A stretch of DNA of 64,000 nucleotides from Blasia pusilla (GCA_050084515.1 CM114271.1:7502001-7566000); one strand, 5' to 3'; shown: positions 2,078-59,150, numbered from the stretch's first letter. Translations and numbers: made by a program. Notes: generated by a model from the letters alone, not told the origin.

Positions 2078-4503
2078 CAGGATGTAGATGGTTTGAGTCG
2101 TAACCCATGCGCGAGTCAGCGAGATGCGACTGAAGCTTGATGGCATAGAGAGAGTGATAAGGAGTTGGTGCCAAGATGGCACGCGTCAGCCAATTTGGGC
2201 TTGTAGGCTATGGAGAGCCAGATTGTTGAGACTTCGATAGCGAGGTCTGATGGAAAGTCCTTAGATCTAGAGGCCGGTGAGGAGACAACAAGTGGCCGAG
2301 ATATTCACGACGATGGAGTAGTCTTGGAGTATCTGTGTACTGGTAGCGTCGTGAGCACAGTGGGTGCTAGAGAGCGGGATCGGATTCTACCGCAAGCCAG
2401 ACGGTTCCGGTGGGAGAGGACACATGTGTTGTGAGTGTGGGAGGACGATAGATTACGTGTAGTGCCTCATCCTTCACAGAGAGCACATTTGGTACGTCAT
2501 GTCCATGAGGAGTTTGGGCATTTTGGACTAAAGCGGACATATAGCCAGATACAGTATTGATGGCGAGGCATATAGATTGATGTTTAACAGTTTGTTGCCA
2601 GGTGCATGGTTTGTGATCGGGTCCGGGCATCATTCAATGCTCCGACTCCAGAGTTGCATCTACTTCCGATCATGGGCTTAGGTTATAGATGGAGTTTGGA
2701 TTTTTCAATACCTTTACCTTTGACCGAGTGCCATAGTTGTATGTGTTGGTGATGGTCGAGCACTTCTCGAAGTGGATAGAGTTGGTTGCATTGCCTGACA
2801 AAGTGAGTGAGGGAGTAGCGTATGCCTTCCTAGATCGAGTGCTGAGTCATTATGGCCCGCCAGCTGAGGTGTTGACAGACCAAGGTATAGAGTTTCATGG
2901 GTAGTTTCACATCTTGTGTGATCAGGCGTTGATCGACCACCACACATCTTCGCAAGATCATCTTGAGGCGGATGGACTAGCAGAGAGGATTGTGCAGATG
3001 GTGAAGAGAGGATTGCGCAAGTATGGCTTGCATAGAGGTTAGCTAGGAGATTGAGACCTCTAGTTGCCGTGGTTGGCGATGGGATACAGATATAGCAGGT
3101 AGATATCCTTAGCGTCTTTCTCACCGTACTTGTTGCTTTATGGACGAGAGCCAGATTTACCTATGGCCATCCGTCAAGATGTTGGTGAGGTGTTGAACCT
3201 TGATGACCCTGATGTATGGATGCGAGCATATTCTCAGAGAGATGAGTTTTTTCGGAGAGTGATATCCATGGCGTTTGAAAACTTGGCAATTGCGCAACAT
3301 CGGAATATGTTGAGGTATGCCATTATTCAGGGAGGTGGTTATCAACCTATTCTCTGGAGGTTTCATCAGGGAGACTATGTCTACTTGCACCAAACAACTC
3401 CCACGACGTTGGATGTGATTGCAAGGCGTACTATCTTGAGAGTGCGTGAGGTTTTGCTATTTGGTATTCTCTTATTGGAGGGGTGCGATGGTATGGTTTG
3501 GAAGGATCATGTGCGTAACTGTGTGCCATATCACCTTCCTTACATTGATGGCACAGTTGATCCAAGCTTAGCAATAGTTCTTGCAAGCTTGCAATGTATG
3601 TTGTGTGGTTCCGTCCGTGCTACAACCACCATGCTAGTCTATGATGGATGTCTGAGAGGATGGCATATGGCATGTTTGACGCCACCTCTCACTAGAGTTC
3701 CTCACGGATGATGGATGTGTCCCAGATGTACATAGAGTAGATAGTTCTAGATTCTGACTTGTGTGTGTAACATGGATGACAAGAAAGCGACTAACGATGG
3801 GGCCACATTAGCACCAGGCCTTTTTGCTCTTAGCGTCTGAGAGATGTATGTCATGGTAGGTAGGGATAGATGGCTATCTGGAGTTAGAGGAACCTAACCA
3901 CCAACTAGGGGATGTAGTAGAGCGTCTTCCGAGATACTGGAGGACAGCCTCAAGAGGTCGAGGATGACCTGTTGAGGCCACGGGTAACCTAAAAGAGCAA
4001 GTTTCCCATTTGTTTCCGCTCATTTGGAGCCATATAGAAAAACTTACTATTTTGGGTAAATTTCCATTTGGAATATAGTTGACTTTCCATTTTTGGAAGT
4101 GGCCCTTGACCCGCTACAATAAGTGAGCCAAGGAGGTGATTTGCGAGCATAGGTTACTGAGGAGAGAGCTTGGGAGAGGGAAGGTGGTATAGCTCCAAAA
4201 GAGAGAGCTTAAGAGCTCATTCTCTCTTTGTTGAACCTCGTGGCATGAGGCAATGGAACTATGGTCCTCCTTGCCATGTGTGTGTAACTCAAGCCTCTCA
4301 TTAGGAGAATGGGTTTAGTTGACATGAGAGAGAGTGCACACTATGGAGATCTTGGTGTGAGATGTTGATGTGAGATTTCGTTGATTTATTGGAGATATTT
4401 TCGTACTTCTCGTCTCGTTGTTTGGATTCCATGAGTTAGCATGGGATTGTGTGTGTTTGGTGAGAGCAATATATGTTGTGTAGCGATATGTATGCGTACG
4501 AAA
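2078..4503 (+). mobile_element. PHD-gypsy family copy 1: 3' fragment (RNaseH end, integrase, PHD, terminal A-B segment)
   Basis: Starts at QD(V)DGLSRNPC. Degenerate integrase is followed by a degenerate PHD finger 'CMLCGS...WHMACLTPPL' (ORF 3130-3711), a G-tract at ~3908 and A/B terminal sequence ending ...GCGTACGAAA. B1 and the start of A are deleted relative to the other copies. Confidence 0.85.
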
Positions 4504-5589
4504 TTACATCAAAAAGAGTTGAGAGGTGATTTATACCAAGGTGTGAGAGATGTTGTGACGAGATATAATACCGATGATTATGTTATAGGAAGACGAGTTA
4601 TTTTACTTTCTTCCTTTGTTGGAGGGCCTCAACACATGCATCAATTATATCATGATGCCATAGAAATTATGAGACATTTCGGGAAGCCTAACTACTTTCT
4701 GAATATTACTTGCAACCCTAAGTGGCCGGAGATCACTTTTGTTCTACTTCCTAGTCAAACAAATTCAGATCGTCATGACTTGGTTGTACGCATTTTCCAA
4801 CAAAAAAAGAAAGAGTTATTAAGGCTTATAGTGGATAAGCATATTTTGGAGAAATTGGTAGGACATATTTACGTCATGGAGTTTCAAATGAGAGGTCAAC
4901 CACATGTGCATATTTTGATTATTCTTGCCTAGGAGGATAAGCCAAGGACAATGTATAATTTTGATGATATTATATCTGCTGAGATTCTTGATTTGACTAC
5001 TCATTCGAAACTTCATGCAACTGTGAGAAATTTTATGATACATGGACCTTGTGGAGAACTTTATCCTAATGCACTGTGTACTGATAAAACAACAAAATAT
5101 GTTCTAAGGGCTACCCGATGCGTTTTACCTCCATGACAATGGAGAATGAGGATGGATGTCCGATTTATAAGCGATAATCTTCTTGACCTTTGTCTTAATT
5201 TTTTAAACATTGTAGCAGTATATTTTTCAAATTTTCTTTTAAGTACTAACATATTCTCCATATTTGTGTTCATGTAGACATGATAATGGTAGGTCGATTC
5301 ATAAGTCGAATCATGACTTTGATAATCGTTGGGTGGTTTTGTATAATCCGATGTTATATACCTTATTTGATTGCCATATCAATTTGGAGATCACAAATAC
5401 TGGGTGTGAAGTACTTCTACAAGTATGTATATAAGGGATCATATCCTATACTTCGGCAAAAAGTACAACTACGGAAGATATTATTGATAAGACATCATTA
5501 TATCTTGATGCAAGATACTCGAATTTCTTTTTTTTTAGATTTTTTTATAATTATCTTAGAATATTTCTAGATTGGACTCTTCAGTATAT
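4504..5589 (+). mobile_element. Helitron Rep (HUH) domain fragment
   Basis: 'GRRVILLSSFVGGPQHMHQLYHDA...GKPNYFLNITCNPKWPEI...MEFQMRGQPHVHILI', 'MIHGPCG' and 'KYFYKYVYKG' are Helitron Rep motifs; stops and frameshifts are present. Confidence 0.9.
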
Positions 5590-8500
5590 TTTCATGTGCA
5601 TACACATTGCTACAAAACATACATTGCTGTCACCAAACATACACACAAACACACACAATCCTATGCCAACTCATGGTATCCAAACAACAAGACAAGAAGT
5701 AACAAAATATCTGCAATAAAATAGCATCCAATCTCTCTCACATGTGTGCACTCTCACATATCTCTTTTAATGTCCAACCAAATCCATTCTCCTAATGAGA
5801 GGCTTGGGTTACACACACAAGGCAAACAAGACCATAGCTGCGTCCCCTCATGCCAAGAGGTTCAACAAAGAGAGAATGAGCTCTCAAGCTCTCTCTCCTT
5901 AAGGTATATCCCTCCCCTCTCCCAAACTCTCTCCATGGTAACCTATGCTCCCAAGTCACCTCCTTGGCTCTTGACCTGATATAGGAGGTTAAGGGCCACT
6001 TACCAAAAATATAAAGTCGACCATATACTCAAAATGGTACTTACCTAAAATAGAAAGTTTCTCAATATAGCTCCAAATGAGACGAAACGAAGGGGAAACT
6101 TGCTCTCTTTGGTTTTCAGAGGCCTCAGAAGGTCATCCTCGACCTCTTGAGCCTATCCTCCACTACTTGTGAAGGCGCTCTACTATATCTCACAGATCTA
6201 TTCTAAAAGACGTGACAGTTGTCGTGCGCATACACATCGCTATCATCAAACATACACACAAACACGCATGATCCCATGCTAGCTCATGGCATCCAAACAA
6301 CGAGACAAGAACTACCAAAATATCTCCAATCACCCCCTTAGCTGGTGGTTAGATCCTTCTAACTCCAGATAGCCATCTATCCCTACCTACCATGACATAC
6401 ATCTCTTGGACGATAAGAGCGAGAAGGTCGGGTGCTCATATGGCCCCATTTTTAGTCGCCTTCTTGTCATCCATGTCACAGACACAAGTCAGAATGTAGA
6501 ACTACCTACTCTATGTACATCTGGGACATAGCCATCGTCCCTGAGGAACCCTAGTGAGAGGTGGCGTCAAGCATGCCATATGCCATCCTCTCGAACATCC
6601 ATTACAGACTAGCATAGTGGCTCCACCACGGGAAGAACCACACAACATACATTGCAAGCCTGTAGAAACTAGTGCTAAGCTCAGATCATCTGTATCGTCA
6701 ATGTTCGGAAGGTGACACGGCGCATAGTTACGCACATGGTCCGACCTACCCAATAAGATTTCCTTCTAAACTCCATGACAACATGAAAATGCCACAAAGA
6801 TTCAAAAAAATCCTATTGAAACCATACCATCGCGTCCCTCCAATAAGAGAACACCTGATGGCAAAACCTCTCGCACTCTCAAGACGGTGGGCCTTGCAGT
6901 CACATCCAACATCGTGGGTGCCGTCTGCTACAAGTAGACATAGTCTCCGTGATGAAACCTCCGGATAGTAGGTCGATAACCATCTCCACGAATAGTCGCA
7001 TACCTCAACGTATCCCGACGTTACGCAATCGCAAAGTTCTCAAATGCCATGGGCATCACTCTCAAAATAACTCAACCCTCTCACAATATGCTCGCATCCA
7101 TACATGAGGGTCATCAAGGTTCAACACCTCACCAGTATCTAGACAAATGGCCGCAGGTAAATGTGGCTCTCGGCCATAAAGCAACAAGTTCGGTGAGAAA
7201 GACGCTAAGGATGCCTGCATGCTAAATCTGTATCCCATCGCCAACCACAATAACTTAAGGTCCCAATCTCCTAGGTGACCACTTTGCAAGCCATACTTGC
7301 GTTTTCCTCTCTTCACTGTCTACATAATTTGCTCCGCTAGTCTATCTACCTCAAGATGATCTCGCGAAGTAGTACAATGGTCAATGAGTGCCTGATCACA
7401 CAAGGCCTAAAACTCCCTGCGGAACTCTGTACCCTGGTCTGTCAACACCTCAGCTGGTGCGCCGTAATGACTCAACACTTGATCTAGGAAGGCATACGCT
7501 ACTCCCTCACTCGCTTTGTCAGGCAATGCAACCAATTCTATCTACTTCGAGAAGTGCTCAACCATCACCAACACATAACAACTATGGCGCTCTGTCAAAG
7601 GCAAGGGTCATGAAAAATCCAAACTCCATCTATAACCTAAGCCCATGATCGGAATAGGATGCAACTGTGGAGTCGGAGCATTGAACGATGCTCGCACCCG
7701 ATCACACACCATGCATTTGGCAACAAACTGTTGAACGTCAGTCTGCATGCCTTGCCACCAATACTGAATCGGGAGCAAGCTGTACGTCCGCTTCACTCCA
7801 AAATGACCCAACTCCTCCTAGGCGTGACGCACCAAACGTGCTCTCTACGAAGGATGAGGCACAACACGCACTCTACCATCCTCCCACACTCGCAACACAT
7901 GTGTGCCCTCCCACCGGAATCGTCTGGCTCGCTGTAGGATCCGATCCCGCTCTCTAGCACCCATTGTGCTCGTGACGCTGCGAGTACACAGGTACTCCAA
8001 GACGACTCCATCGTCGTGAATGACTTGGCCACCTATCATCTCCTCACCCGCCTCTAGATCTAAGGACTCTCTATCAGACCTCGCCATCAAAGTCTCAAAA
8101 ATCTGGCTCTCCATAGCCAACAAGCCCAAATAGGCTGAGGCATGCCATCCTAGAACCAACTCCTCACCACTCTCACCATGCCAACGAGCTCAAGTTACAT
8201 CTCACTGACTCGGGAATGGGTTACGGCTCAAACCATCGGCATCCTGGTTGAGCGTCCCACGTCTTTGCACCACTTGGAAGTCATACTCCCTCATACGAGT
8301 TATACTTTGCCTTTGCAGCGTTGTTCGAGCAACTAATGGAAGCCACCATGAACTCTCTACCATCATCGTCATGTTGGGTGAGCAGGCTCCAAGCCCCAAC
8401 ATGCTCCAATTGATATGCAACTGGAAAGGAGGCCCCCTGATTGGTCTCCTCAATATAGGCGCGGACATCAATCTGTCCTTCAGCATTTAAAATGCTCTCT

Positions 8501-9942
8501 CCTGCTCATCCCCCCAATGCCACTCCTAATCCACCTTGGTCAGCAACGTTAGCGGCTTCGCAATCAAACTAAAACCCTTGACGTACCATCTATAGAAGTT
8601 CGCCAATTACATGAGTGCACGAACTCGACTCACATCTATAGGGCGTGGAATGTGTGAAATAGCCTCTACCTTTGTCTAATGCACACCAAAGCCTCCTCGG
8701 TATATCGTATGACCCAGGTACTCAATCTGGTCGTAGAAGAACTTGCACTTGCCTGGATGTAGCTTCATCCCATGTTATTGCAATCATTGAAACACCTCCT
8801 CTAGATGTCGCTCATGCTCCTCAACCGTGGCGCTAAAGACTACGATGTCATCAATATAACACCTAGCAAAATCCAGACCTACCAAGATCCTATCCATGAC
8901 CCTCTGAAACTCAGCCGGGGCGTCCTTTAACCCGAATGGTAAGAACCGCCCGTGGTACAAACAATCCTTCCCGTGAGGATCGATGCCCCAAAATACCGTC
9001 TTCAACGTGTCCTCCAATCTGATAGGCAGCTGATGGTATACGACTCGCAAATCCAATGAATTGAAGACCTTTGCATGCCCAATTGCATCAAAGATCTCCT
9101 CAAGGGTGGGCATGACATACCGATCGAAATTTGTCTGCCAATTGATTGGTCGGTAATCTCCACACATCCGCCTATCCGTCCAGTTGCCATGCACATCCTT
9201 CTTGGCGGGCATGATAGTGGCAGATGCATACTCTCCATGTGACATCTCCACTAGTCTTGCTCCAACAAAGGCCTGGCTCCTACTTTGAATCAAAGCCCTC
9301 TCCATGTCACTGTACCTGTAGGGTCGTCGGAAGATCGGCATGTCACTCGACAACTCAATGCAGATCCCTAGACCCTTCAGTGTACCCAAATCATGCATAC
9401 TAAATGCAAAACAACTCTTATAACTCCTAAGGAACTGGTGTATCCCACGTTGCTCTCCTCCTTTCAACTAAGGGCCCATATCTGGCTCCCAAGTCTCCAT
9501 CATGACTACGGTAGGACTCTCCGGCGCAGATGTCGGTGGCTGCTATGGTGCAACCCCGTCTCGCACAATAGAACTCTCATCTCCACGTGTAGTACCCGGA
9601 ACCACGCTTGATGTTGTGGCTATCATCTCTTGGGGTACCTGCAAAAAATCCCAAGAAGTCCAAGGGTAAGTCCAAGGGTGTATCGATGTCCTCGAGTCTC
9701 GCCCCCAGCCACTTCCTCAACCATCTCGGTAGGCATGGGGCTCACCAACGCAACTTTTGTGATCTATTGTATCCTCAAATGATGTTGCTCAGCTACTCCT
9801 AGGCTGAAAATCCATGTCAAGCAGTTCAGGTCCATCGCTTGACCCAAGACATGACATCTTGATGCCTCCGATGGTGACGGTACTGCCGTCACTCTTGTGG
9901 GGAATCCCATCGCTTGCTCTTGCTCATCGGCATTGGGCTCCA
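5590..9942 (-). mobile_element. PHD-gypsy family copy 2: 5'-truncated (DNMT C-terminus, RT, RNaseH, integrase, PHD, B-AC-A-B end)
   Basis: RT with YIDD (8784-9467), RNaseH (8202-8486), integrase HHCC (7608-7811) and PHD (6511-6753). The DNMT tail 'ADEQEQAMGFPT...VLGQAMDLNCLTW' is at ~9810-9942. Terminal repeats B2 ~5590-5717 and B1 6220-6330. Confidence 0.9.
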
Positions 9943-12900
9943 CTATGAGACTTTTGGAGTAGGAGCAAAAGTCTCATAGTAGTCAAAACCTTTGATTTGT
10001 GAACACCCTTGTGCAACCAACCTCGCTTTGAATTTATCCAATGTACCGTCCGACTTGTACTTGGTCTTGTACACCCACTTGGTGCGTATTATCTTCTTGT
10101 CCTTTGGCTTCTCAACCAAAGTCCAAGTTTCATTTCTTTGAATAGCATCCATCTCCATCTGCATGGCCTCTCTCCATTAAGAATGAGCAAGGGCCTCATC
10201 CAAGCATGATGGCTCTTCCACCTTCAAGACCTCTGTCATCAAGGCCATGTTGACGAGATGTGCGAAAGCTCTATTCTGCTCCTCTAGTCTCTTGGATCTC
10301 CTTGAATGTGTAACAACTTCATCAGTTGCAGGTGGATCCTTACCATCCAAGAGCTGCTTTATCCACTTAGGGTATAACGACCGTAGTGGAAGACCGGGCT
10401 GCTCTTTGTAATCATCACCAAATTCTTCTTCTTGATGATCTGGTGTAAACATTGGTGGTATGCTTTGGTGGGTTATCTCTTTGTTTGATGATAATGTGGA
10501 CGGACCACTGATATCCGCCACTTGACGAGGTTGTTCCTAAAACACCACATCACGACTCACAAGCATCTTCTTTGCCTTAGGACACCATATGCGATAAGCT
10601 TTAGACTCATCACTATATCCCATAAAGATGCACTTTTTGCTCTTGGACTCCAGCTTGGTCCTGGATGCTTCAGGAATATGTACAAAGCACTCACTACCAA
10701 AAGTCCTGAAATGTTGGACTGATGGTACCTTATCTGAGTATGATTGATGAGGAGTCATGCCTTGCACTAACTTGGTAACACTTCTATTTGGAATGTAACG
10801 ACACTATTAACATCTTTAGCCCAAAATTCTTCTGTCAAACCTTTTTCTTTCATCATACATCTTGCCATCTCCACCACTATATAGTTTCGACGCTCAACAA
10901 CTCCATTTTATTGTGGTATATGTGTTGTGGTTAACTTTCACTTGATTCCATGCTCCCCCAAATATTTGTTGAATTCTGTTGATAAGAATTCTCCTCCTCA
11001 ATCGGTGCAAAGCTTTTGTACCTTCTTTCCTATCTCATTCTCAACCAGCTTGTGCCATACTTTAAATTTTCCAAAAGCACTTGCCTTACCACGAGGATAT
11101 ACACCCACATCTTCTTACTATAATTTTCGACAACTAAAATGAAGTAGGAAGAACCACCTAATGCCACTATTCTCAAATTACCACAAAGGTCAGCATGAAT
11201 CAGCTCTAGAGGAGCCTTTGCTCTATTGCTAGACTCTTGTGGAAATGGTTGTCGGTGTTGCTTGCCCATCATACAAGCTGCACATGTATCCGCCACTCCA
11301 AAAATTGTTGGAAAATCAACAACCATGCCAGATTTCTGCATCTGACTTAGTAAGGGAAAGCTTACGTCATCAAATCTTTCATGCCATAACTTACTGCTAC
11401 TAAGATCTATACCTACACTTGTCCTGAAGCATACAACTCATGGATATTTCCAGGTGGTATACCTTCACCGACTACTTTCCCATTGGCATCCTTAATGATT
11501 GCTCAAGTTTTCTTGAAACGAACTTCTAGGTCACGATCACATAATACTGCACTGAAATTCAAATTGCGCTTCAACTCTGTTACGTACAGTATATCAGTTA
11601 ACTTCTTTTATCTCCTTTTTGTGAGACTTAAGAAATTGAACCTTTCCCTTCTACACGGCACTTGCATTAATACCAACAATAACAACGATGGGCTCATGTA
11701 GAGGCTGTAAGGAGCTATACCAATCCTTATGATTGGTCATATGCCTAGATGCTCCACTATGGAGCACCCATGCATCTTCACTCTTTGACTTAGTGGAATG
11801 TTCTGCCTGTGTGCAAAACTCTTTGATTGCTACCCAAGCATCTACTTCATGTTCTCTTAGTTCTACAAAATTTCCAGACTCCTTCTTAGGTCTTAAACAA
11901 CCGTTCTTCTCATCCTGACTCCTCTTTCTACAATCTTTGATAAGATGACCTAGCTTACCATAATAAAAGCATTTGAAGGCTTTCCTTGGAAATTTCTTCT
12001 TGACATTTGAAATGTAATCATGATTTCTACCTCTCTGTACGTTGGCAGTAAATGTTGCATCACTTCCCTCTCTTGCTTTGAAGCGTATTTCCTCTTCTAC
12101 CAACATTGGACTAAATTGTTCAAAAGTAAGCGGCGTGGGTCTTACTTGAGTATTCAATGCAGTGACCAAACTGTCATACCTTGGAGGAAAAATCCTTATG
12201 CACTGACGTGCCAAATCTTCGCTAGACTTTGAAATTCCTATGGACGCCATTTGATCTTGAAGATTCTTGATCCTTGTCAAAAATTGCTCCACGCTTTCTC
12301 CTTCTAAAAATTTCTCTGACGTAAGCTGATTCTCCATATTTTAAATCCGAGTCTTATTCCTCATTTCATATTTTCTTCGGAATGTTCCACGCCTCAGCAA
12401 CAGTGGTCGTATGTTGAATGAGAGTCATTATAGAATCAGTTACATTCATGACAATCGCACATAGAGCATCAACGTTTATGTGTTTCCATGCCAGCAATAC
12501 AACAAGATCGATATCACCAAATGAAGATGATCATGCAGAACTCAAAGTAGCTTGTGGATTCGAATCGATCCTTGTGGATGTCTCCCAAATCTCAAATGAT
12601 TCGAGGACAGCTCTCATTTTGAACTTCCACAATGTATAGTTAGACCCATCTAACTTCCCTTCAACCAACGGGGGAGGGCAAGCATGAACTGACGAAGAAG
12701 TAGCCATCTCTCAAGATTCTGTGCAAACACACTAGATCGCCAAATACAAAATACTGGAAAACCTATTGCTTTGATATCATATGAGAAAACAAAAGTGACA
12801 AAATCACTGAAATCTTTATAAAACTTAGAGAAACAAAGTGGCCTAGTTCGTCCGTGCGCTCACAGAAGAGCTTCGATGGAACTTGAACATGGAGATAACT

Positions 12901-13589: not shown

Positions 13590-13802
13590 CTCGGGGGTCT
13601 CACTTCCACGGAAGAGACCCATCACGTATGACAAAGTATAGGGTTTTTTAATTCGATTTCAGAGAAGACTTATAAAGTTTTGTGGAAGAACTTAAGGATA
13701 TTTTTAATATAGAGAAACACTTATAATAACAATAGGGCATTATTAATTATAAGTCTGTAGATGGAAGATGTTTAAGGTAGTAAGAGGCAGATAAAAAAAG
13801 AT

Positions 13803-14725: not shown

Positions 14726-14843
14726 TTTGTTTTTTTATTCATGTTCAAATTTTGTTCCAACCATTGGATTGGATTTTGTTCCAACCATTGGATGATCTCT
14801 AGTCCTCTAGACAATCTCTAGAGGACTAGAGATTGTCTCCCAA

Positions 14844-48469: not shown

Positions 48470-49855
48470 TATCGTGCGCATACACATCGCTACACAACAT
48501 ACGTCGTTGTCACCGAACATACACACAAACACGCACGATGCCATGCTAACTCATGGCATCCAAACAACGAGACGAAAAGTACTAAAATATCTCCAATAAA
48601 TCAAGATCCAATCTCTCTCAACACCATAGCTCTCAAATGTGTGCACTCTCATATGTCTCTCTCAATGTCAAACCAAACCCACTTTCCTAATGAAAGGCTT
48701 GGGTTACACTCACAAGGCAAGCAAGACCATAGCTCCGCCCCCTCATGCCAAGAGGTTCAACAAAGAGAGAATGAGCTCTCAAGTTCTCTCTCTCTTGGAG
48801 GTATACCCCCTTCCCTCTCCCAAGCTCTCTCCTCGATAACCTATGCTCACAAGTCACCTCCTTGGCTCTTGACCTGCTATAGCGGATCAAGGGCCACTTC
48901 CCAAAGTGGAAAGTCAACTATACTCCAAATTGAAACTTACCCAAAATAGTAAGTTTCTCTATATGGCTCCAAATGAGCCGAAAAGAAGGGGAAACCTGCT
49001 CTCTCACGTTTCCCGGGGCCTGAGTAGGTCATCCTCAACCTCCTGAGTCTGTCCTCCACTACTTGTGAAGGCGCTCTACTAGATCTCACCGATCTATCCT
49101 AAAAGTCGTGATAGTTGTCGTGCGCATACACATCGCTACACAACATACATCGTTGTCACCGAACATACACACAAACATGCACGATCCCATGCTAACTCAC
49201 GGCATCCAAACAACGAGATGAGAAGTACTAAAATATCTCCAATCGCCCCCCTAGTTGGTAGTTAGGTCCCTCTAACTCCACATAGCCATCTATCCCTACC
49301 TACCATGACATACATCTCTCGGACGCTAAGAGAAAAAAGACCAAGTGCTCATGTGGCCTCATCGTTAGTCGCCTTCTTGTCATCCATGTCACAGACACAA
49401 GTCAGAATCTAGAATTACCTTCTCTATGTACATCTGGGATACATCCATCGTCCCTCATGAACCGTAGTTAAAGGTGGCGTCAGACATGCTATATGCCATC
49501 CTCTTGAACACCCATCACAGACTAGCATAGTGGCTGCACCACGGGCGGAACCACACAACATACACCGCAAGCCTGCAGGAACTACTGCTAGCCTCGGATC
49601 AACTATACCGTCAATGTTAGGAAGGTGACATGGCGCACAGTTATGCACATGGTCCTTCCAAACCATACTATTGCGTCCCTCCAATAAGAGAACACTAGAT
49701 GGAAAAATCTCACCCACTCTCAAGATGGTGCGCCCTGCAGTCACATCCAACGTCGTGGGTATCATATGTTGCAAGTAGACATAGTCTCCCTGATGAAACC
49801 TTCGGATAGTAGGTCGATAACCACCTCCTCGAATAGTCGCATACCTCAATGTATC
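48470..49855 (-). mobile_element. PHD-gypsy family copy 3: 3' part (integrase C-terminus, PHD, B-AC-A-B end)
   Basis: PHD in ORF 49424-49990; B1 49116-49243, spacer 49114-49115, A 48598-49113, B2 48470-48597. The element continues at 59151. Confidence 0.9.
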
Positions 49856-51789
49856 TGTCACATTTGAGTAGCCGATAGGCCGAGATCTATCGTGGATAGG
49901 GCGTAGGAGCCAGCGGACTATCTTGAGTGTAACTTTGTCCCATAGTGTTGGATGAGGTTGAGGATAGGTCCATTGTGTCAGGAACGTCATTTCTGAAAAT
50001 TTTCATGTTGAGGTCTTTTACAGCCGGGTGACTTGTTGACCAGGTCACCCGCCCCTGGTAACCTGTACGCGCAGGTTACCAAGGGGACGGCTATTTTTAG
50101 GGGATGAGCCTTTTGGCTCTTCCCAACCCTATATAAGAGAGGAAGATGGCTTTACTAAGCCATCTTTCTCATGTTGGGCGGTTGGAGCATCTCCCTTGTA
50201 TGTGTGTGAGATAGGACTAGGGTGCTAGCGTCCTGATTCCTTGATAGCACAGGGTGGACGAGGCTCGATATGCCGATGTAAATTGAGGAGTGGAGTTTTA
50301 GGCCAATTGTGCCATTTTTACTATTCTTTATTTTTACATGAGAAAGATGTCAGGGGGCTGGTGGGAATTCGTCGTTGCAGGTAGGCAAGCGAGTTGCCTT
50401 GGTTGGGAGCCCGTGGAGACGTTGGTTGGCGTCGTATTTGTCATTTTTTTTGTTCGGAAGACCGTGGGCGGAAGCGCTGTCCGTTTTTCTCAGATTTTGT
50501 TGGTGCACAGGGATTGGGGACAGCGGCAGAGTGTAGTACGGAGTGGGCGTCAGGTGTACGCAAGTGAGGGTGTCGAGAGAGAGAAAAAAAAAAGAGTTTG
50601 AGGCTTGCAGCCATCGGGGGCTGTCAAGTAAAAGCGGCTAGCTAGGGGTCTAGAACTAGGGTTAGGGCGCGGACGGGAAAAAGAGCGGCGACGGGTGGAA
50701 GGGCGCAGACAGGCAGCGACGGGTGGAAGGGCATGGACGGGCGGCGACGGACTTTGGGGAGGCCCGCGTTCTCCCCACCCTCCAACCCCGCATTTACATC
50801 CCATAGGGGTTTGGGCCCGTAAGGCCCTCCCACCCCCCGTCCTCCCTCTCTTCCACCGTAGTTTGAGAGGGTTCCCCCTCCCCTGCATTTAGTACCCTAT
50901 AGGGATGCAGGCCCGGAAGGCCCCCCCCCCCCCTCGCATTTAGGACCCAAGGAGCCCGCATAGGGCCGCGGGCCAGGTTTTTCTCCCATCAACGTGGTAT
51001 GGCACATGCGGATGTGGTCAGGACCAAGTGGATGTGGTGGAGTTGCAGGGGCTGAACGTGGTAGGGCAGGCCGACATGGCACCACAGTTGACGGGAGTGA
51101 CGTGGTAAAGTCGGACGTAGTTGGAAGGGAAGACATGGTTGGGGTCCGACGTGGTTGAGTTCGGTTATGCAGTGGAGAGTTCTACGGGACTTAGTGTCTC
51201 ACGAGCGTGGATGGGATTCGCGATAGGACTTTGTCGATTGTTACGAGTAGGTTGGGAGGATGCCTCATTAGTTCTTCACTAACTGGGAATTGCGAGGGTT
51301 GTGATGGGGACATACGAACCTACACTGACGAGAGGTTTGACGTGTTGGTCGAGGAGAGTGTTGTGTTGCGGAGATTGTCATATCATGTGGAGGAGTGCAT
51401 GTTGACGGTGCAGCAGGTTGGAGGGCGTGATCAGGTTACCCATTCGAGTCCCTTTTCCCGCACTTTTCCTGTGTGATTGAGAGTGTTGGTATCGGGTAGT
51501 AGCTGGTGCTAGGTGGGTGCAGTGATGGTGGAGAGTGTAGATTCTTTTCATGTGTAGCATGTTGGTGGATATACGGCGGTTGCCGAGTAGGGGTCGCGTG
51601 TATGACTCGAGAGAGTGTCGCTAGGTTAGGTAAGTCAGTTGGGAGGCTCATGGTGAGCCCGAGTGTTGAGCGTGCGTGGGGCCGGGTATGTCATCACGGG
51701 ATTGATGTTAGCATAGGTGAGCTAGTGAGGCATGTGGGAGACTCTCGGTGAGTCTGAGTGCTTGAGCGGGTGAGACAGGGTTTGTCATC

Positions 51790-54700
51790 ATGGCGTTCTT
51801 CCAAGGTTCAGAAGAACGGGGTAGTGCGAGCAGTAGTAGTGGTGTGACACGGAGTGGAGTGAGATACTGAGGGGTTACCAGTGAGGAGCTACCTCGACAT
51901 CCATCCGTGGCTGGATCGTCATCACTGGACACTGGGTCTGGTGACGAGATCACAGATAGAGACAATAGTACTTGGCAGGAGATGGACGACATGGGCCATC
52001 GGGGCATGCGTCGTTTCTTGGGTGCAGTGGGCACCATTGACTTAGATGATTTTATCCAGTAGTTTGACACATGCTGTGACTTCTTGGAGATACGGACCCC
52101 GACACGATTCAACCCTTTCATGGCATAGAAGGGGTTATTCCAGCACTTGGAGGATCCTCCGATGGATGACTACATGGATTTTTTATCACTATATTCAGTA
52201 GAGATCGATGCCTGGAGGATGTATTGGGCTCCAGGGTATGTGTCCACTAGTGGTCGCGAGGCATATGATGGGATTGTGAGAGGGGAGAGACCCACACCAT
52301 CAGCCAGGAGACTAGATGGAGAGGAGGGCAATGAGACAAGCGATGTGGCAGAGACCTCTGGTGGTAGAGGGCCACCCAGCTTCAGCCCCACAGTGGAGTT
52401 CTTCCGACAGTTGGGGAAGAGCTACTAGGGCATACGCACCAACAAGCTGAAGAGTCTACAGGATTCTCAGCGACGATCGGGTGAGAGTCTGAGAGAGGCA
52501 TTCACACGCATGAGGAGGCTGATCATTGCTACGTTTGGAGTGAGTGAGGTGCAGTCAGTCCAGTATTGGTACGGGGTTTTGGACCGAGAACTACGGAGGA
52601 GAGTCCGAGATGCGGTGCTGATTCACACAGCGAAGCCCACATTGAAGGTGGTCTTTGAGTTGTCTGAGCGTATTGAGCTCAACATGAGTGAGGAGCAGGT
52701 AGTGACCGCTGGATTTTCTCGAGAGTTGACGGGTCCACGAGCGACGGTGACCCCACAGGTGCCACAACAAGCACCAGTACTATGGGAGCGGGCCAGTGTG
52801 CCTAGAGAGCGGGGCGGGTAGCGTGAGCCTATGAGGCAACGACCCGTACCTACATATGTTGCCCAGCAAGGACCGATGTGGTCTTGTAGGACGTGTGGAG
52901 GGGCCCATGGGCAGAGAGACTGCCCACAGCATGGAGAGGACCACCACTGCCTCCGATTGCTCAAGAGCCACAGAGGATGGCCCACCACAACACCAGTGTG
53001 ACCATTGCCACAGATATGGTCACACTAGGGATAGATGTTTTGACCTTTGCCGAGGGGCACGTCCAGAGGTAGGCCGAGGGCCTGGGGGCGGTCGTCCTGG
53101 AGGAGGTTGGGGAGTTCACCCTGGACGTGGTGGTAGAGGACCACCACCAGCCAGAGGAGATGAAGCAAGAGCACCAGACCTGGCACTTCTCTCATGCATC
53201 GATCAGTTGGAGCAGAGGATTGCTGCCCTGATGATGATGCAGCTTAGGGAAGGCACGCAGTTGCAAGCAACTAATGTGACTCCAGCTTTTACCTCTTACC
53301 TTGACCCGGGTGAGGATCTCGCCAGTATGGGATTTATGTATAGTGCATCCCAGGTTGAGGCAGCTGTAGTGGTGACTCGGGGTGCTGCGAGAGGCACCGA
53401 GCCATCGAGAGGTGGAGTTGAGATTGACCCACCAGAGGGGACCGATGGGCGGCAGGCCAAGGTTCCATAGTCGTTCACATTGTCGGAGGCACTACAGACA
53501 CCATCGATGGTGCCTCGACGACGAGCGGTGCCTACAGTTCAGGCACCAACGTCGACGTCACGAGGAGTTGGAGTGACAACTCCTATGCTGGCTTGAGTGG
53601 AGTCAGTGTTGACCATAGTGTTGGAGGTGGCCACCAGAGTGAGTCAGACTCCGCTATTTTCCGCCCTAGAGTTGGCGACGTTGGGGGTTAGACCAACTGA
53701 GGTGTTCTGGTTGGCTGCCACGTTGTGTGAGCATGGAGAGATGACCGCTTCTTGTTCAGAGGTAGTTGAGGAGGTGGTGGACTTGCCCTCAGAGCCGGTG
53801 CTTGGGACGTTTCACACAGAGTCATGGCATGCGGCGGTGGCGAAGTTGGTAGATATGCCAGCTCGACCGGCCATAGAACGAGCAGTGGTGACACCTGGAG
53901 TAGTGTTACTGGATAACCGAGCTGGAGTATTTCGCTTGGTTAGTTCGACGAGGACAGTATACCACTTGTAGCGCGTCTTACTTGATTCGGAGCGCAACCC
54001 TTGATGTTAGGGAAGGCGGCGTGTTTAGCATTGGGGTTACGGAAGGCCGACATTGAGCCTTGTCCCTTCTAGATACAGACCTCGATTGGGGGCGTATCAC
54101 CCACTCAGTATATGACTCGACATGAGATTGTTGTCAAAATCCAGCCAGAGCATGCGACGGATAATGCTGTGGTGCGCACACGTGCGATTACGACACCAGC
54201 TGAGTCGTACGATGTGTTGGTGGGGAGTACAATGTTATATCCCCTAGGATTCATCCTTGACACCGTTGCTTATCAGCCAGGATGGCGGTCAGGTGACGGC
54301 CGGATGAGTCAGTTACCCTTGCAGTTTGCGGGACGAAGTGGTCAATCACGAGGCGAGTCTGTGACCACGTTGGCAGCTTTCACAGGTAGTGTTAGCTGGC
54401 CAGGAGAGTTGTTGGAGGGGAACGCACATGCGGAGGATGTCCCAGTAGCGGATAGTCCTATGGAGAGACAGGCCATGGCGGGTGTCTCTTCCCATGTTGG
54501 CGAGGCCTCTTCACCATTGTGGGGTACGACTCGAGAGCTACAGAGGAGTGCCGACGACCTCGTGAGGCAGGCGTGGGGTCATGTTTTTATCCCAGAGCAG
54601 CGAGAGTCACGTGGCGATTGGGCTCTTGGAGTGGAGACGTTCACCCCATTGGATACCACACCTGTTGTGTGGCAGTGCCCAGAGGAGGGTGTTAGGGTGT

Positions 54701-57700
54701 TAGATCTCTTCGGAGGGATTAGCACCAGATTGGCTGCACTATTGCAGGCGGGCATACGGGTGCATCAGTACCTTTATGACGTAATGATACCGCACGGCGA
54801 GTATCATTACGTCACGTGGCAAGATTGGTCCAAAGGTATCCTGAGTTGTTGCCGGTATATGTAGTACGGGGATATCATTATACGCTACCTGCCGACATCT
54901 CTTTGGTGGGGATGCAGGATCTAGATAGAGTTGGCACCATTCATTTGGTGATTGTTGCGAGTATTAAGACACTTGCAGGAGAGTCAGATATGTTCTCCAG
55001 CGTACATTTTGGAGAACGTGCCATTTTTGGGAGACACTCGTGCACGTGTGGTGACAAGTGTACATCAAGTGAGGTCCTGGTTGGGACCTGCTGTGTTGTT
55101 AGATGCAGCGAGAGTTGGGTCACGTGCCCATTGTCAACGATTGTGGTGGACGAACCTGATACCATCAGAGGTACTGAGTCGAGCATACGGTGGAGTCCAG
55201 AGAGCACCACATCTCATAGTGGATGCTATTTTGGGCTTAGGGCGTCGATCTCAGGTGGTGACACGGGATGATAGACCACCGTTGGCCATGGCCAATAGGG
55301 TGCGGGAGTTGAGGGCAGCCTTACCTACGTTGGTGAGCTTCCAAGCATCCCATGCCTTTTGTCAGGGAGGGCCAGGCATGATTTGGGATGAGGTGATCGG
55401 AGCATTGGAGGAGCCTACAGCAGATGAGCGCGAGCGCGCCATGGGGTTCACTATCGGTACTACGGCGGTGCCAGGGATGACTGAGGCATCACAGAGATAG
55501 GTGTTGGGGCAGGTGATGGACCTCTACTGTCTCACATGGATAGTCAGCCTAGGTATGGCTGAGCATAGACGGATGCGAGTGTCATCCATGCCGTCACTTC
55601 CACAAGTTGGACCATTGCCTACAGGGTCTGTAAAGGCATTGGTTGGGGCGAGACGAGGAGAGATAGGCACCCATGGACTTCTTGGGACGTCGCTCGAGCA
55701 GAGAGTGCAAATGCGGCTAGAGTAGCACATGTTCATTTTTGAGATGTGGAGCATGGTGTAGGAGGTTAGAGTGGAGTGGTTGTTGCGGAGGTGGCTAGGG
55801 TTGCTACATAGCAACCAAAGCCGGAGGTTGCGTCCTCTTCGAGTGAAGTCACGATGGAGACTTGGGAGCCTGTGATAGGTCTCAAGTTGATAGGAGGAGA
55901 GCGACGGCGAGTTCATAGGTTTCTAAGAGGGCATGTGAGTTGTTTTTCCTTCAGTATGAGAGACTTGGATACGTTGAAGGGTCCCGGAATACGGAATGAG
56001 TTGGCTAGTGATACGCCAATCTTTCGTCGACCCTACAGGTATTCTGATATGGAGCGAGCATTGATTCAGAGTAGGAGTCAGGACTTGTTGGAGGCAGGAC
56101 TTGTGGAGTTATCACATGGGGAGTATGCATCTGCCACAGTCATGCCGGCGAAGAAGGATATGTATGGCAATTGGAAGGATAGGCGGATGTGTGGAGATTA
56201 CCGTCCTATCAACCGGTGACGAGGTCGATCGGTGCACGCCATGCCTACTCCTGAGGACATCTTTGATGCGGTAGGGCATGCAAAGATCTTCAGTACTTTA
56301 GATCTCCGTGCTGGCTATCACCAGCTTCCTATCAGGTTGGAGGACAGGGAGAAGACAACATTCTAGGGGATAGATCGGTTCAGGAGAGATTGCTTGTATC
56401 AGTGGCGGTTCTTACCATTTGGGTTGAAGAACGCGCCTGCAGAGTTTCAGAGAGTGATGGATAGGATTTTGGCTGGCTTGGATTTTGTACGATGTTACCT
56501 AGATGATATTCTTATCTTCAGTTCCACGGTTGAGGAGCATGAGCGACACTTGGAGGAGGTGTTTTGGCGATTGCAGTTACATGGACTGAAGTTACATCTA
56601 GGCAAGTGCAGATTCTTTCAGGAGCAGATTGAGTACTTGGGACACACCATATACCCGAGTGGGTTAGGCGTTCAGCAGACGAAGGTAGAGGCTATTGCGC
56701 AGATTCCACGCCCTACAGATGTGAGTCGAGTTCGAGCATATCTTGGACTGGCAAACTTCTATCGACGGTATGTCAAGGGTTTTAGTGCGATCGCAAAGTC
56801 TTTGACCTTGTTGACGAGACTTGATCTCGTTTGGTTGTGGGGAGATGATCAAGAGCGAGCATTTCAGGAGCTCAAGGACAGGTTGATGTCCTTACTCATT
56901 TTACAGAGACCGGTTAGGGGTCGCCCATTCTAGTTACATACGGATTGGAGCATGTTGGGTCTAGGAGCAGTGCTTACTCAGAGGGATGACGAGGAGAGGG
57001 AGTTCGTTGTGGCTTACGCGAGCCGATCGAACAACATTGCAGAGGCGAAGTATAGCTCCTACGAGGGAGAGTGCTTGGCTGTAGTGTGGGCCGTGGCACA
57101 TTTTAGGTGCTATTTTTTCGGCAATCCTTTCACACTTATCACTGATCATCAGTTGTTGAGGTGGTTGATGGAGTCCGACAAGCTTACGGGAAAGCTTGCC
57201 AGGTGGGCTCTATTACTACAGGAGTATGAGTTTGAGGTGGTTCATAGGCCAGGTCGGCTGAACCAGGATGCGGATGGGTTGAGTCGTAACCCATGTCCGA
57301 GTCAGAGAGACGACATAGTAGCTCGATGGCACGGAGAGAGTGATGAGGAGATGGTGCCCGGTTGGCATGCATCTGTCTATCTTTTTTGGTTGACTATGGC
57401 AAGTCAGCCACAGGTGATGACTCTAGTGGTGGGCCGGGGTTGGATGATGCGTCTTTGGATCCAGAGGTTAGTGAGGAGGCGACAGGTGGTCGTGATATCC
57501 ATGACAACGTGGAGGTTGTGGAGTTCTTGCGCACTGGTGTCATTGCGAGTATAGTGAGTGCTAGGGAGCGGGATCGGATTCTACAGAGAGCCAAGAGGTT
57601 CAGGTGGGAGGGGACTCACATTTTGCGGGTATGGGGAGATGGTAGAATACAAGTGGTACCCCATCCTTCCCAACGAGCACCTGTAGTGCGACAATGCCCA

Positions 57701-58938
57701 TGAGGAGTTGGGACATTTTGGAGTAAAGCGTACTTACAATTTACTCCAAGTTCAGTATTGGTGGCGCGGCATGCATACTGGGGTACAGCAGTTTGTGGCC
57801 AGATGTATGGTATGTGACAGAGTGCGAGCATCCTTCAATGCTCCCACTCCGCAGTTACATCCTTTGCCGATTATGGGTTTAGGTTATCGATGGATTTTAG
57901 ACTTTGTGGGACCTTTTCCATTGAGGGGACGTCATCATAGGTATGTGTTGGTCATGGTGGAGCATTTCTCCAAGTGGATAGAGTTGGTGGCACTACGAGA
58001 CAAGGCGAGCAAGGGAACAACTTATGCGTTTCTAGATCGTGTGCTTAGTCACTTTGGTGCACCGGCGGAGGTGTTGACTGACCAGGGTACCGAGTTCAGG
58101 GGAGAGTTTCAGGCCTTGTGTGATCGGGCGTTGATAGATCACCACACCACGTCCAGAGATCATCCTGAGGCATATGGGTTGGCGGAGAGAGTGGTACAGA
58201 CGATGAAGAGAGGATTGCGCAAGTATGGCTTGCAGCGGGGACAGTTGAGGGAGTGGGACCCACAGTTGCCATGGTTGGCTATGGATTATCGCTTTAGTCG
58301 GCAAGCATCCTTGGCGTCATTTTCACCGTACTTTTTGCTCTTTGGGAGAGAGCCAGATTTACCTGCAGCAATTTGAAGTGACATGGCGGAGGTGTTAGAT
58401 CTTGATGATCCAGATGTGTGGGTACAAGCATGTTCTCAAAGGGCACAAGTTTTTCGTAGAGTTATGCCTATGGCCTTTGAGAACTTAGCTATTGCCCAGC
58501 ATAGAGATACATTGAGGTACGTGACCATTCGTGGAGGAGGTTATCGTCCAGGGATTAGGAGGTTTCATCTTGGAGATTACGTGTATTTACAAAGAGCGGC
58601 ACCCACGACGCTAGATGTCATCAGAGGGCGCCACGATCCTACGTGTGCGCGAGGTATTACTGACCGGAGTCCTCATGTTGGAGGGACGGGATGGTATGGT
58701 TTGGAAGGATCATGTGCGCAATTGTGCGCCATGTCATCTTTCGAACGTAGATGGGATGGTGGATCCGAGCTTGGTAGTGATACCTGCAGGCTTGAGGTGT
58801 ATGTTGTGCGGATCTGCAAGGGGTGCAGCCACCATGTTGGTATGTGATGGTTGTTCTCGAGGGTGGCATATGTCATGTCTGACCCCCCCTCTTGATGTGG
58901 TTCCCACGGGACGATGGATGTGTCCGAGATGTGTATAG
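51790..58938 (+). pseudogene. gag-PR-DNMT-RT-RNaseH-INT-PHD polyprotein (stops/frameshifts)
   Basis: Zinc knuckles CRTCGGAHGQRDC and CDHCHRYGHTRDRC; protease 'VLLDSG' ~53975; RT YLDD (56394-56933); RNaseH (56952-57300); integrase HHCC + D,D,E (57708-58376); PHD (58795-58935). Confidence 0.9.
54685..55560 (+). pseudogene. DNMT3-like C5 cytosine methyltransferase domain within pol; catalytic loop deleted
   Basis: Motif I 'VRVLDLFGGIST', motif VI 'YILENVP', motif VIII 'DAARVGSRAHCQRLWWTNL', motifs IX/X 'ERERAMGF...VLGQVMD'. Confidence 0.88.
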
Positions 58939-59150
58939 GGTAGTAGGTCATGTCAGAGAGATGTGATACTTTCTATCTGGAGTTGGGGGGATCCAACTGC
59001 CAGCTAGGGGGGCGGTTGTGTGATCTCCATGTATATGTATGAGTTGATTTTTGTACATGTGTGGATCGACCCGTGTGTGGAAGATCGGTGTTGTGTGGTG
59101 TAGATGTGACCAGCGATGTATGTTGTGTAGCGATATGTATGCGCACGACA

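Follow-up and report, generated by a model that had tools for sequence, protein, structure and literature searches.

Split direct repeats are commonly taken as a hallmark of the DIRS order, whose members carry a tyrosine recombinase and insert without target duplication. The elements of this order that have such repeats (PAT-like, Ngaro, VIPER), as far as their structure is laid out in PMC8969392, follow the order A1-internal-B1-A2-B2, an arrangement that points to an intermediate in circular or permuted form and is shared by the elements treated here. Among Gypsy-type elements, the DNMT-bearing KnitGypsy-Dnmt3 of Klebsormidium nitens (de Mendoza et al. 2018) is given a DIRS-like A-coding-B-A-B arrangement in the legend to Fig. 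4c of PMC5890265, and that paper describes its repeat structure as "the same as that of a DIRS retrotransposon". The Gypsy-DNMT3 elements of streptophytes are also named in bioRxiv 10.64898/2026.05.21.726589. The preliminary description of the present locus supposed that its family had been overlooked; going by the legend in PMC5890265, however, the architecture has been in print for Klebsormidium since 2018. The term "PHD" is absent from the main text of that paper, and its relevant text passages and the Fig. 4c legend mention no TG/CA ends, flanking duplication, NN junction or polypurine tract at B.

Here we find the same split-repeat architecture in a family whose integrase is of the DDE type. 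One copy of this family preserves the marks of integrase action: A opens with TG, B closes with CA, and 4 bp of target are duplicated. With high confidence we regard this copy, from Blasia pusilla, as an A-internal-B member of a Ty3/gypsy-type, DNMT- and PHD-bearing streptophyte lineage with split direct repeats. It resembles KnitGypsy-Dnmt3, as described in the portions of PMC5890265 cited above, in that the polyprotein holds a C5-DNMT alongside the Gypsy domains, and differs from it in host and in lacking the 3' A-B. In a protein search, Klebsormidium retrotransposon proteins appeared among the relatives, and the proteins nearest to the products of the insert were from liverworts.

The window, that is, the whole 64-kb stretch of DNA analysed, holds the element as a single insertion, read from the sequence at 49856-59150, with TGTC...GACA ends and a duplicated TATC. 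The element begins at 49856 with TGTCACATTT and ends at 59150 with GCGCACGACA, and the two copies of the 4-bp target site lie at 49852-49855 and 59151-59154. Both junctions were aligned to positions 6975-7050 of a paralogue in the same window in which the site is uninterrupted (copy2). With the insert and a single TATC taken out, the host has CAATGTATC before and TCGATGTTGCGCAATCGCC after the junction, against CAACGTATC and CCGACGTTACGCAATCGCA in copy2; since the repaired host matches the uninterrupted paralogue across the junctions, the limits of the insert are exact. Among further members of the host family, the empty-site joint (49851 to 59151, skipping 9299 nt) occurs in contigs of all three public DNA runs, and it is also present in 60 RNA reads. 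None of the contigs listed bridges 59150/59151. The recipient is an older relative of the insert, about 74% identical to it and lying on the minus strand, and the element entered it by a DDE-integrase-type reaction that left TG...CA ends and a 4-bp duplication. TG...CA termini with a duplication of 4-6 bp are characteristic of Ty3/gypsy elements. The preliminary description of a clean insertion with these limits, termini and target site duplication is thus backed by the junctions and by the empty-site paralogue, and its remark that the ends share only a 4-bp inverted TGTC/GACA agrees with a Smith-Waterman comparison, in which the terminal inverted repeat is no longer than that.

The insert encodes, in order, gag, protease, a broken C5-DNMT, reverse transcriptase, RNase H, an H2C2/DDE integrase and a PHD finger, all on the plus strand, and these account wholly for the stretch from 51.9 to 58.9 kb. 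The 5' half was compared with an intact metagenome relative (L002), in which gag-PR-DNMT is followed by a stop and then by RT-RH-IN-PHD and whose ORF1 matches PF00145 (1.8e-13). A gag-like region at 51919-52752 has 24% identity to residues 49-353 of this ORF1 (E 3e-11), and the region of the aspartic protease and C5 cytosine methyltransferase at 53627-55569 has 33% identity over 575 aa to its residues 717-1260 (E 3e-72). The methyltransferase (53989-55569) lies inside the polyprotein as in Gypsy-DNMT3, an assignment made at the level of C5-DNMT and not of the Dnmt3 subtype; motif I and ENV are kept, the stretch opposite the PCQ motif of L002 is degenerate, there are in-frame stops, and a Pfam scan of the broken ORFs left the domain unscored. 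Reverse transcriptase and RNase H occupy 55848-57554 according to Pfam and to tblastn against intact relatives, with RVT_1 at 56367-56930 (9e-24), RT_RNaseH at 56934-57551 (7.5e-33) and a stop codon between them (56931-56933). The integrase follows at 57651-58709, with Integrase_H2C2 and the rve core within 57687-58373, and the C-terminal PHD finger (PF00628, 8.9e-12) with its stop codon at 58615-58938. The stop lies at 58936-58938, so that 212 bp remain after it, the figure first reported. In collinear tblastn to intact relatives, the pol homology is spread over frames 3, 2, 3 and 1. To call the insert a gag-pol element, as was done initially, understates its content, leaving aside the DNMT and PHD; that account of the coding part must also be amended, in that frameshifts and stops break it and the copy is decayed. 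The focal copy is dead and itself functionless.

By its proteins, the family belongs with Ty3/gypsy and not with DIRS. Pfam and tblastn give the pol order PR-RT-RNase H-IN with RT_RNaseH and Integrase_H2C2/rve, and no Phage_integrase (tyrosine recombinase) domain was detected in the 19 plus-strand ORFs scanned. Whereas the DIRS order has a tyrosine recombinase and no target duplication, neither of which describes the focal copy, this family has an H2C2/DDE integrase, TG...CA ends and a 4-bp duplication. It shares with canonical Ty3/gypsy elements (Metaviridae) the succession RT-RNase H-integrase, the Integrase_H2C2 and rve domains, a G-rich polypurine tract, TG...CA ends and a short duplication. 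In contrast to those elements, its genomic copy is not flanked by identical terminal repeats, two long direct repeats being absent from the ends of the focal copy, and the sequences used by the integrase adjoin inside the element (B1-NN-A2).

The split repeats themselves are seen in the relatives. The interrupted host (host3), on the minus strand, has its 5' side at 59151-64000, where it runs off the window, and its 3' side at 48469-49855, which contains the end of the integrase, the PHD finger, the polypurine tract, B1 (49116-49243), AC (49114-49115), A2 (48598-49113) and B2 (about 48470-48597). The paralogue copy2 (5587-9943, minus strand; the equivalent of the insertion site at about 7008-7014) is 5'-truncated and ends in B1-AC-A2-B2. 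A further 5'-truncated copy (copy1; 2078-4506, plus strand) keeps A2-B2. Ends of the form B1-NN-A2(-B2) are found in host3 and copy2 and in four metagenome loci. One of these, L007, is complete, with A1 (about 4095-4357)-internal-B1-GT-A2-B2, no B after A1, and ACTT as a candidate 4-bp duplication, which is only a 4-nt match in decayed sequence. L016 has B1-GT-A2-B2, and L001 and L002 have B1-GC/GT-TGTCAC. In all, B is followed by NN and the start of A in six of the ten 3' ends examined. Ends with B only are fewer: two, those of the focal copy and L005, are clear cases, and L003, in which B is followed by GA and then by ATGTTTGC, possibly a decayed start of A, is ambiguous. In L005, B gives way to unrelated AT-rich DNA; no second B occurs within 3.3 kb, and an exact search found no target duplication, the 5' limit of this locus not being fixed. 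No relatives were found among viral contigs. The A2 of the host family shows no significant similarity to the focal leader or 5' end (z -0.4 to 2.0), the sole sequence common to A2 and the 5' end being the terminal TGTCAC. We also considered whether A2-B2 might be a mini-element in its own right that had inserted next to B1, and rejected this, as no duplication flanks A2-B2 in host3, copy2, L007 or L016.

The focal family leaves traces of the same arrangement in public runs. Its B-to-A joint (59150 to 49855/6) and its A-to-B joint (50333/4/5 to 59015) both occur in contigs of all three DNA runs, and the best-supported B-to-A variant has GT between the two sides (X3, depth 108.7). The sources of these joints are short Logan contigs and reads at >=90% likeness in a high-copy family, and the joints are taken as presence and not as proportions; likewise, the depth of a Logan contig sums over paralogues, and copy-number ratios were left unused. 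The family has a depth of hundreds of times the single-copy level, and most of the matching contigs are 90-95% alike to the focal copy. The focal copy itself does not have the A-coding-B-A-B arrangement, but host3, copy2, L007, L016 and the joints of its own family do, so that within a split-direct-repeat family it represents the A...B form. Among the RNA reads, eight cross the B-to-A joint and two the A-to-B joint, a small contrast that is expected if transcripts end in A2, and the sense depth over A is at least that over B.

The two repeat units can be delimited in the focal copy. A (49856-50335, plus strand, 480 nt) starts with TGTCAC, has its 3' limit set by the A-to-B joints of other copies, and contains a TATA-like CTATATAAG at 50129-50137. 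B (59015-59150, plus strand, 136 nt), delimited by sequence reading and by the joints, ends in GCGCACGACA flush with the duplication. A G6 polypurine tract (59007-59012, plus strand) ends 2 nt before B, just 5' of the 3' repeat as in Ty3/gypsy elements, and a G5-7 tract lies 2-3 nt 5' of B in all nine elements that retain the region. In all four elements with both B1 and B2, the homology between the two begins at the tract. Directly 5' of the tract is a hairpin (58977-59003, plus strand; -14.1 kcal/mol, with none of 300 shuffles as low). Folded one by one, the relatives have hairpins at the equivalent place with different stem sequences, and RNAalifold on a MAFFT alignment of the region before the tract predicted no pairs. 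Even between lineages whose pol identity is as low as 49%, the GACA-NN-TGTC junction is conserved. An argument that B2 ends without the CA with which B1 and the focal B end (CA in 1/5 of B2 and 5/6 of B1) was dropped, since a single family contributes three of the B2 ends and the pattern in L016 is the opposite.

The tract at the start of B and the conserved GACA-NN-TGTC suggest that the LTR of this lineage is B-NN-A and that it is opened at an internal junction; the TATA-like box in A also counts in favour of such an LTR. Replication-capable copies have the form A1-internal-B1-NN-A2-B2, and reverse transcription would yield an ordinary linear cDNA, with its left end set by the G6 tract just 5' of B and its right end predicted at the end of A. 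The right end is given as a prediction because no primer binding site was seen after A1 in the focal copy or in L007. The integrase would then bypass the cDNA ends and use the interrupted palindrome within the LTR, where a nick after the CA of each strand, the two being offset by 2 bp, would leave a pair of ends that are already processed. Opening of a 2-LTR circle at a single junction would give A1-internal-B1-NN-A2-B2, which keeps the 3' A and can be copied again. The A-internal-B form could arise from a 1-LTR circle, or by cleavage at both junctions if the substrate is a linear cDNA or a 2-LTR circle, and the focal copy would then have been dead on arrival, its transcript having no 3' A. 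Were the integrase to act mostly on 1-LTR circles, B-only ends should be more frequent than they are. We infer the cDNA and the circles of this scheme from sequence. Integrases can cut palindromic LTR-LTR junctions internally, according to the parts of PMC1905944, PMC1180852 and PMC4372172 that bear on the point, and the retroviral 2-LTR circle has a comparable palindromic ...CA-N-TG... junction of two att ends. However, the retroviral junction is a side product of ligation, whereas that of the focal lineage is templated, conserved and has a spacer of 2 nt.

The tract at B, the conserved junction and the RNA contrast lean slightly to junction cutting as the normal mode of integration of the family, and we judge this model for the family to be somewhat probable. 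That the focal copy is itself a direct one-unit integration seems to us quite possible, if a little short of probable. The wider proposition, that the lineage integrates by cutting circle junctions and that its genomic copies are circular permutations of the cDNA, is put forward tentatively and with some doubt. If it holds, it would explain the origin of split direct repeats and make the DIRS-like architecture independent of the tyrosine recombinase, and the family would bridge LTR and DIRS-type mechanisms. Together, the CA-NN-TG junction, the tract at B and the one-unit copy offer a testable account of the assembly of these elements and of their LTR-less copies.

The main alternative is that a full A1-internal-B1-NN-A2-B2 was integrated and that NN-A2-B was deleted afterwards, when slippage or unequal recombination took place between B1 and B2, direct repeats of 136 nt about 620 bp apart. 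We consider this a real possibility, though on the improbable side. It resembles the formation of solo LTRs, in which the segment between direct repeats is lost and one repeat is left beside the duplication, except that only the short 3' B repeats would recombine here and the coding part would be left. It requires no unproven integration pathway, starts from the commoner form (six of the ten 3' ends), and has a precedent in the region, copy1 having lost B1, NN and ~30 nt from the start of A2; the focal copy, with its frameshifts, stops and contigs mostly 90-95% alike, is also old enough. However, B is short, four copies retain both B repeats down to 85.6-94.6% identity (94.6% in host3), and such a loss leaves unexplained why B starts at the polypurine tract and why GACA-NN-TGTC is conserved. 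Direct integration and B1/B2 loss both put B flush with the duplication and are inseparable on one copy. The A...B-A-B frame of the preliminary description is real, being present in relatives and in the joints of the focal family, and both routes that it proposed, the junction-cut circle and the B1/B2 loss, are still live.

It is very unlikely that the assembly has collapsed two B repeats at a locus that is truly B1-NN-A2-B2. Both kinds of joint do exist in runs that bear the same organism label, at high copy and unassignable to loci, but a collapse would have to delete exactly one repeat unit from a coherent nested structure. Furthermore, part of the leader (50562-51315) is private to this copy and has an even single-copy depth in two runs, and a B-only end also occurs in the independent metagenome contig L005.

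Least probable of all, to the point of being hardly credible, is a conventional LTR retrotransposon with two LTRs too diverged to be recognised easily, since its single support is a 34-nt similarity between A (50176-50210) and the tract and start of B (59010-59043) that is missing from four other elements tested, nothing longer emerges from any search, and A and B are distinct repeats in relatives, with no B following A1 in L007. No direct repeat between the element ends was found by a repeat search of the window or by blastn of the element against it. In a Smith-Waterman comparison of the last 212 nt with the 1.9-kb leader, this 34-nt stretch was the best match, its score being equalled by 1/200 to 1/300 shuffles, and B alone (59015-59150) gave nothing (67/200). 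As a conserved "R" the similarity was discarded, being confined to the focal copy. These searches uphold the original statement that LTRs are absent. Programs that look for LTR pairs will miss or mis-delimit this abundant family, so that estimates of how much repeat sequence liverwort and charophyte genomes contain, and of how old its insertions are, may be wrong.

The leader before gag (50336-51791, plus strand) opens, directly after A, with ACATGAGAAAG. A plant initiator-Met primer binding motif, queried as a 12-mer, has no match in it at <=3 mismatches (41 in the window against 55 expected), in accordance with the earlier failure to recognise a tRNA primer site. A heptamer TGGTATC at 51487-51493 is within chance expectation, and no primer binding site was found after A1 in either of the two available cases, the focal copy and the decayed L007, whose leaders share no significant similarity. 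No tRNA genes occur within the window, and there are no Rfam matches in 48300-59600. The leader of ~1.9 kb noted at first is present, with the correction that bins 50562-51315 have a depth of 12-17 in X2/X3, against thousands elsewhere. At this single-copy depth they are private to the focal copy at >=90% likeness, and represent either a secondary insertion or a fast-diverging part of the leader.

The insert lies on the plus strand at 49856-59150, begins with TGTCACATTT and ends with GCGCACGACA by direct reading, and has TATC on both sides (49852-49855 and 59151-59154). Both flanks belong to one older minus-strand element, host3, which by sequence comparison extends from past 64000 to 59151 and continues from 49855 to about 48469, and which shows about 74% identity to the insert over RT-IN. 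The host family has another copy in the window, copy2 (minus strand, 9943..5587), in which the insertion point is uninterrupted; aligned to both junctions, copy2 has one TATC equivalent only and continues base for base. Therefore, the ends of the insert are exact and the 4-bp duplication is real, as the preliminary description had proposed. Contigs of all three public DNA runs, and 60 RNA reads, contain the empty-site joint 49851 to 59151, contributed by other members of the host family.

The absence of LTRs from this copy, with 212 bp after the PHD stop, had also been noted from the sequence, together with an inverted TGTC/GACA as the sole match of the ends. Both points hold: repeat search, blastn and Smith-Waterman alignment with shuffles gave no terminal direct repeat in the focal copy, and comparison of the termini for inverted matches returned TGTC/GACA only. 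The best match between the 212 nt and the 1.9-kb leader is of 34 nt (59010-59043 and 50176-50210), a score reached by 1 of 200 shuffles and by 1 of 300 in a second set. It links the 3' part of repeat A (49856-50335, 480 nt) to the polypurine tract (PPT) and the start of repeat B (59015-59150, 136 nt). B alone had no match in the leader by Smith-Waterman with shuffles, and the similarity is specific to the focal copy, being missing from all four other elements tested. In line with the earlier remark that no tRNA PBS is recognisable, none was found after A1, the 5' copy of A: a scan of the window gave no tRNA gene, and the plant initiator-Met PBS motif, at up to 3 mismatches, had no match in the leader.

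Pfam domains on the plus strand of the insert are RVT_1 (56367-56930), RT_RNaseH (56934-57551), Integrase_H2C2 plus rve (57687-58373) and a PHD finger (58615-58935). An apparently intact metagenome relative, L002 (976-8229), carries two ORFs in the same frame, and the single in-frame stop between them suggests read-through expression; ORF1 (1369 aa) contains CCHC knuckles, an aspartic protease and a C5-DNMT (PF00145, 1.8e-13), and ORF2 (1047 aa) contains RT-RH-IN-PHD. By tblastn of the two proteins, gag (51919-52752), protease plus DNMT (53627-55569, 33% over 575 aa) and pol (55848-58935) were mapped on the plus strand of the insert, collinear with the L002 proteins. The pol homology is scattered over frames 3, 2, 3 and 1 with stops in frame, and the insert is decayed. 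The C5-DNMT sits between protease and RT (53989-55569; 3700-4400 in L002); it is intact in L002, whereas the focal copy retains motif I and ENV but is degenerate in the middle of the domain and in the stretch aligning to the L002 PCQ motif. The closest proteins are those of liverworts (Riccia 81%, Calypogeia 73-78%, Marchantia 71%), followed by Klebsormidium and Closterium; PHD is found in many of the related proteins and PF00145 in some, and therefore the element belongs to the Gypsy-DNMT3 lineage. Throughout the lineage, the coding strand is rich in G and poor in C (51792-58938 of the insert and the metagenome loci L001, L002, L007 and L016). Since the GC skew (+0.23 in the focal copy versus +0.11 in L002) is also present in the intact element, it is a family trait and not a product of decay alone.

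The 3' ends of host3 and copy2 are ordered as stop codon, about 160 nt, G-run, B1, AC, A2 and B2, where 1 and 2 denote the 5' and 3' copies of a repeat. B1 is 129 nt long and also terminates in GCGCACGACA, and A2 is about 500-520 nt long with TGTCACG or TATCACG as its first bases. B1 and B2 of one copy (94.6% identity in host3, 85.6% in copy2) are more alike than the copies between themselves (about 84%), indicating that the B pair is renewed at each transposition. Copy1 (2078..4506, plus strand) has been deprived of B1, of the 2-nt spacer NN and of some 30 nt of A2. Among 20 metagenome loci, the 3' end is visible in six distinct elements (L007, L009 and L010 are one locus, as are L016 and L017). 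The complete element L007 consists of A1 (about 4095-4357), an internal part, B1 ending GCATGACA, GT, A2 starting TGTTAGGAG, and B2; its A1 is followed by unrelated sequence without an adjoining B, and a candidate 4-bp duplication, ACTT, surrounds A1...B2. An AT-rich stretch of about 540 nt in its A2 (13506-14047), missing from A1, is probably a later insertion. L016 reads B1-GT-TGTCAAATG...-B2, and L001 and L002 read B1-GC/GT-TGTCACG, where their contigs end. In L005, B is followed by AT-rich unrelated DNA with no second B within 3.3 kb, and the 3' end of L003 is ambiguous. Thus, the ten 3' ends comprise six B-NN-A, two B-only (the focal copy and L005), one ambiguous and one B1-deleted (copy1).

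In LTR elements, the left end of the cDNA is set by the polypurine tract. A G5-7 tract lies 2-3 nt upstream of the B start in all nine elements retaining the region, and the B1/B2 homology starts at this tract-marked position in all four elements where B1 and B2 are both present. The spacing between B1 and A2 is always exactly 2 nt (AC, AC, GC, GT, GT, GT; GT in the focal family), and the B1-NN-A2 junction reads GACA-NN-TGTC, an interrupted palindrome that is still conserved at pol identities as low as 49%. At A2-B2, the end of A directly abuts the PPT-defined start of B. A two-tier hairpin was observed directly 5' of the G6 PPT (58977-59003) and in the same place in host3, copy2, L001, L002, L003 and L005, with stems varying by lineage (AGTTGG/CCAACT, GTTAG/CTAAC, GGAG/CTCC, TGCG/CGCA). 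In all nine elements its MFE is lower than the mean of the shuffles (a value as low is reached by 0 to 14 of 300), and it is clear in seven of them, those of L007 and L016 being decayed.

Logan contigs of three DNA runs (X1, X2, X3) and raw reads of one RNA run (X19), all with the same organism code, were mapped to 48300-59600 at a likeness of at least 90%. Joints from 59150 to 49855/49856, B end to A start, occur in all three DNA runs, the best-supported variant having GT between the sides (X3, depth 108.7), and so do joints from 50333/4/5 to 59015, where A(1-480) abuts the 136-nt B. Contig depth is in the thousands over most of the element versus 12-17 (X2, X3) and 0 (X1) in bins 50562-51315. 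Therefore, the focal family is high-copy with other members carrying B-NN-A and A|B. Counts of short contigs cannot yield proportions. At a likeness of at least 90%, one part of the leader occurs in the focal copy alone; it may have been inserted later or may be evolving fast, and no joint distinguishing the two was found in the run mapping. This single-copy segment (50562-51315, with uncertain limits somewhere within 50336-51480) is G+C-rich and has a 28-nt tandem (50685-50740) and C-runs, and it shares the G>C skew of the element. RNA reads are mostly sense on the focal and host families, largely 90-95% alike, and ten cross joints (eight B to A versus two A to B). These sense reads, including those across B-NN-A, indicate that Blasia pusilla transcribes members of both families. 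Five RNA molecules start at 49967 inside A, where the neighbouring depth is 20, and a TATA-like box (50129-50137) lies downstream of this site.

The PPT position, the GACA-NN-TGTC junction and the A|B abutment fit an ordinary cDNA with B-NN-A as its LTR. We infer that the cDNA ends would be the B start and the A end, whose ligation in a 2-LTR circle would create the A|B joint, and that the internal CA-NN-TG is where integrase would open the DNA. With each strand nicked behind its CA, the two nicks would lie 2 bp apart and produce a pair of recessed 3' CA ends, each with a 5' overhang of 2 nt. Such ends are the normal substrate of strand transfer. A 2-LTR circle opened at one site would give A1-int-B1-NN-A2-B2, and a 1-LTR circle, or opening of both sites, would give A-int-B, the focal structure. 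Transcripts would start in A1 and end in A2, which fits the TATA-like box in A and the larger number of RNA reads across B to A; an A...B copy without the 3' repeat would not be copyable again. Against this model, neither a PBS after A1 nor circular or linear intermediates were seen, and the contrast between the RNA joints comes from ten reads. For retroviruses, it is documented that integrase cleaves palindromic LTR-LTR junctions (PMC1905944, PMC1180852, PMC4372172).

We tentatively read the focal copy as a direct one-unit integration, to which we give a little under an even chance. The main rival, almost as probable, is integration of the full split-repeat form followed by B1/B2 recombination, which needs nothing unproven and has a parallel in the deletion known from the same region of copy1, but leaves the coincidence of PPT and B and the conserved junction unexplained; the preliminary description had offered both alternatives, and both stand. 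It is very unlikely that the focal 3' end reflects an assembly collapse of B1-NN-A2-B2, and a diverged LTR pair, contradicted by the data, is hardly credible; a small remainder of the probability goes to other explanations.

One published sentence, in the legend to Fig. 4c of de Mendoza et al. (PMC5890265), already gives the architecture of the family, equating the A-coding-B-A-B repeat structure of Klebsormidium KnitGypsy-Dnmt3 with that of a DIRS retrotransposon; the PPT at B, the 2-nt GACA-NN-TGTC junction and the A end abutting the B start go beyond that remark. Streptophyte Gypsy-DNMT3 is mentioned in a 2026 preprint (bioRxiv 10.64898/2026.05.21.726589), and no treatment of split-direct-repeat elements with a DDE integrase was found in the text of open-access papers. 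A TE curation guide counts both split direct repeats and a missing duplication among the traits of DIRS elements (PMC8969392), whereas the focal copy, a member of a split-repeat family, has the 4-bp TATC duplication. New in the focal copy is the LTR-less, duplication-flanked one-unit form, which fixes the site of integrase action; its ends, with the PPT and the junction, lead to a testable model of split direct repeats without a tyrosine recombinase.

Near by in the window are copia-type gag/Pol_BBD fragments, a 629-aa F-box/Kelch-type ORF and a tandem repeat of about 340 bp with three units 90-95% alike (jointly, 11654-12340, 23982-25315 and 26971-28857, all minus strand, and 13794-14726). 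The similarity of copy2 to its relatives ends at 9943, near a copia fragment.
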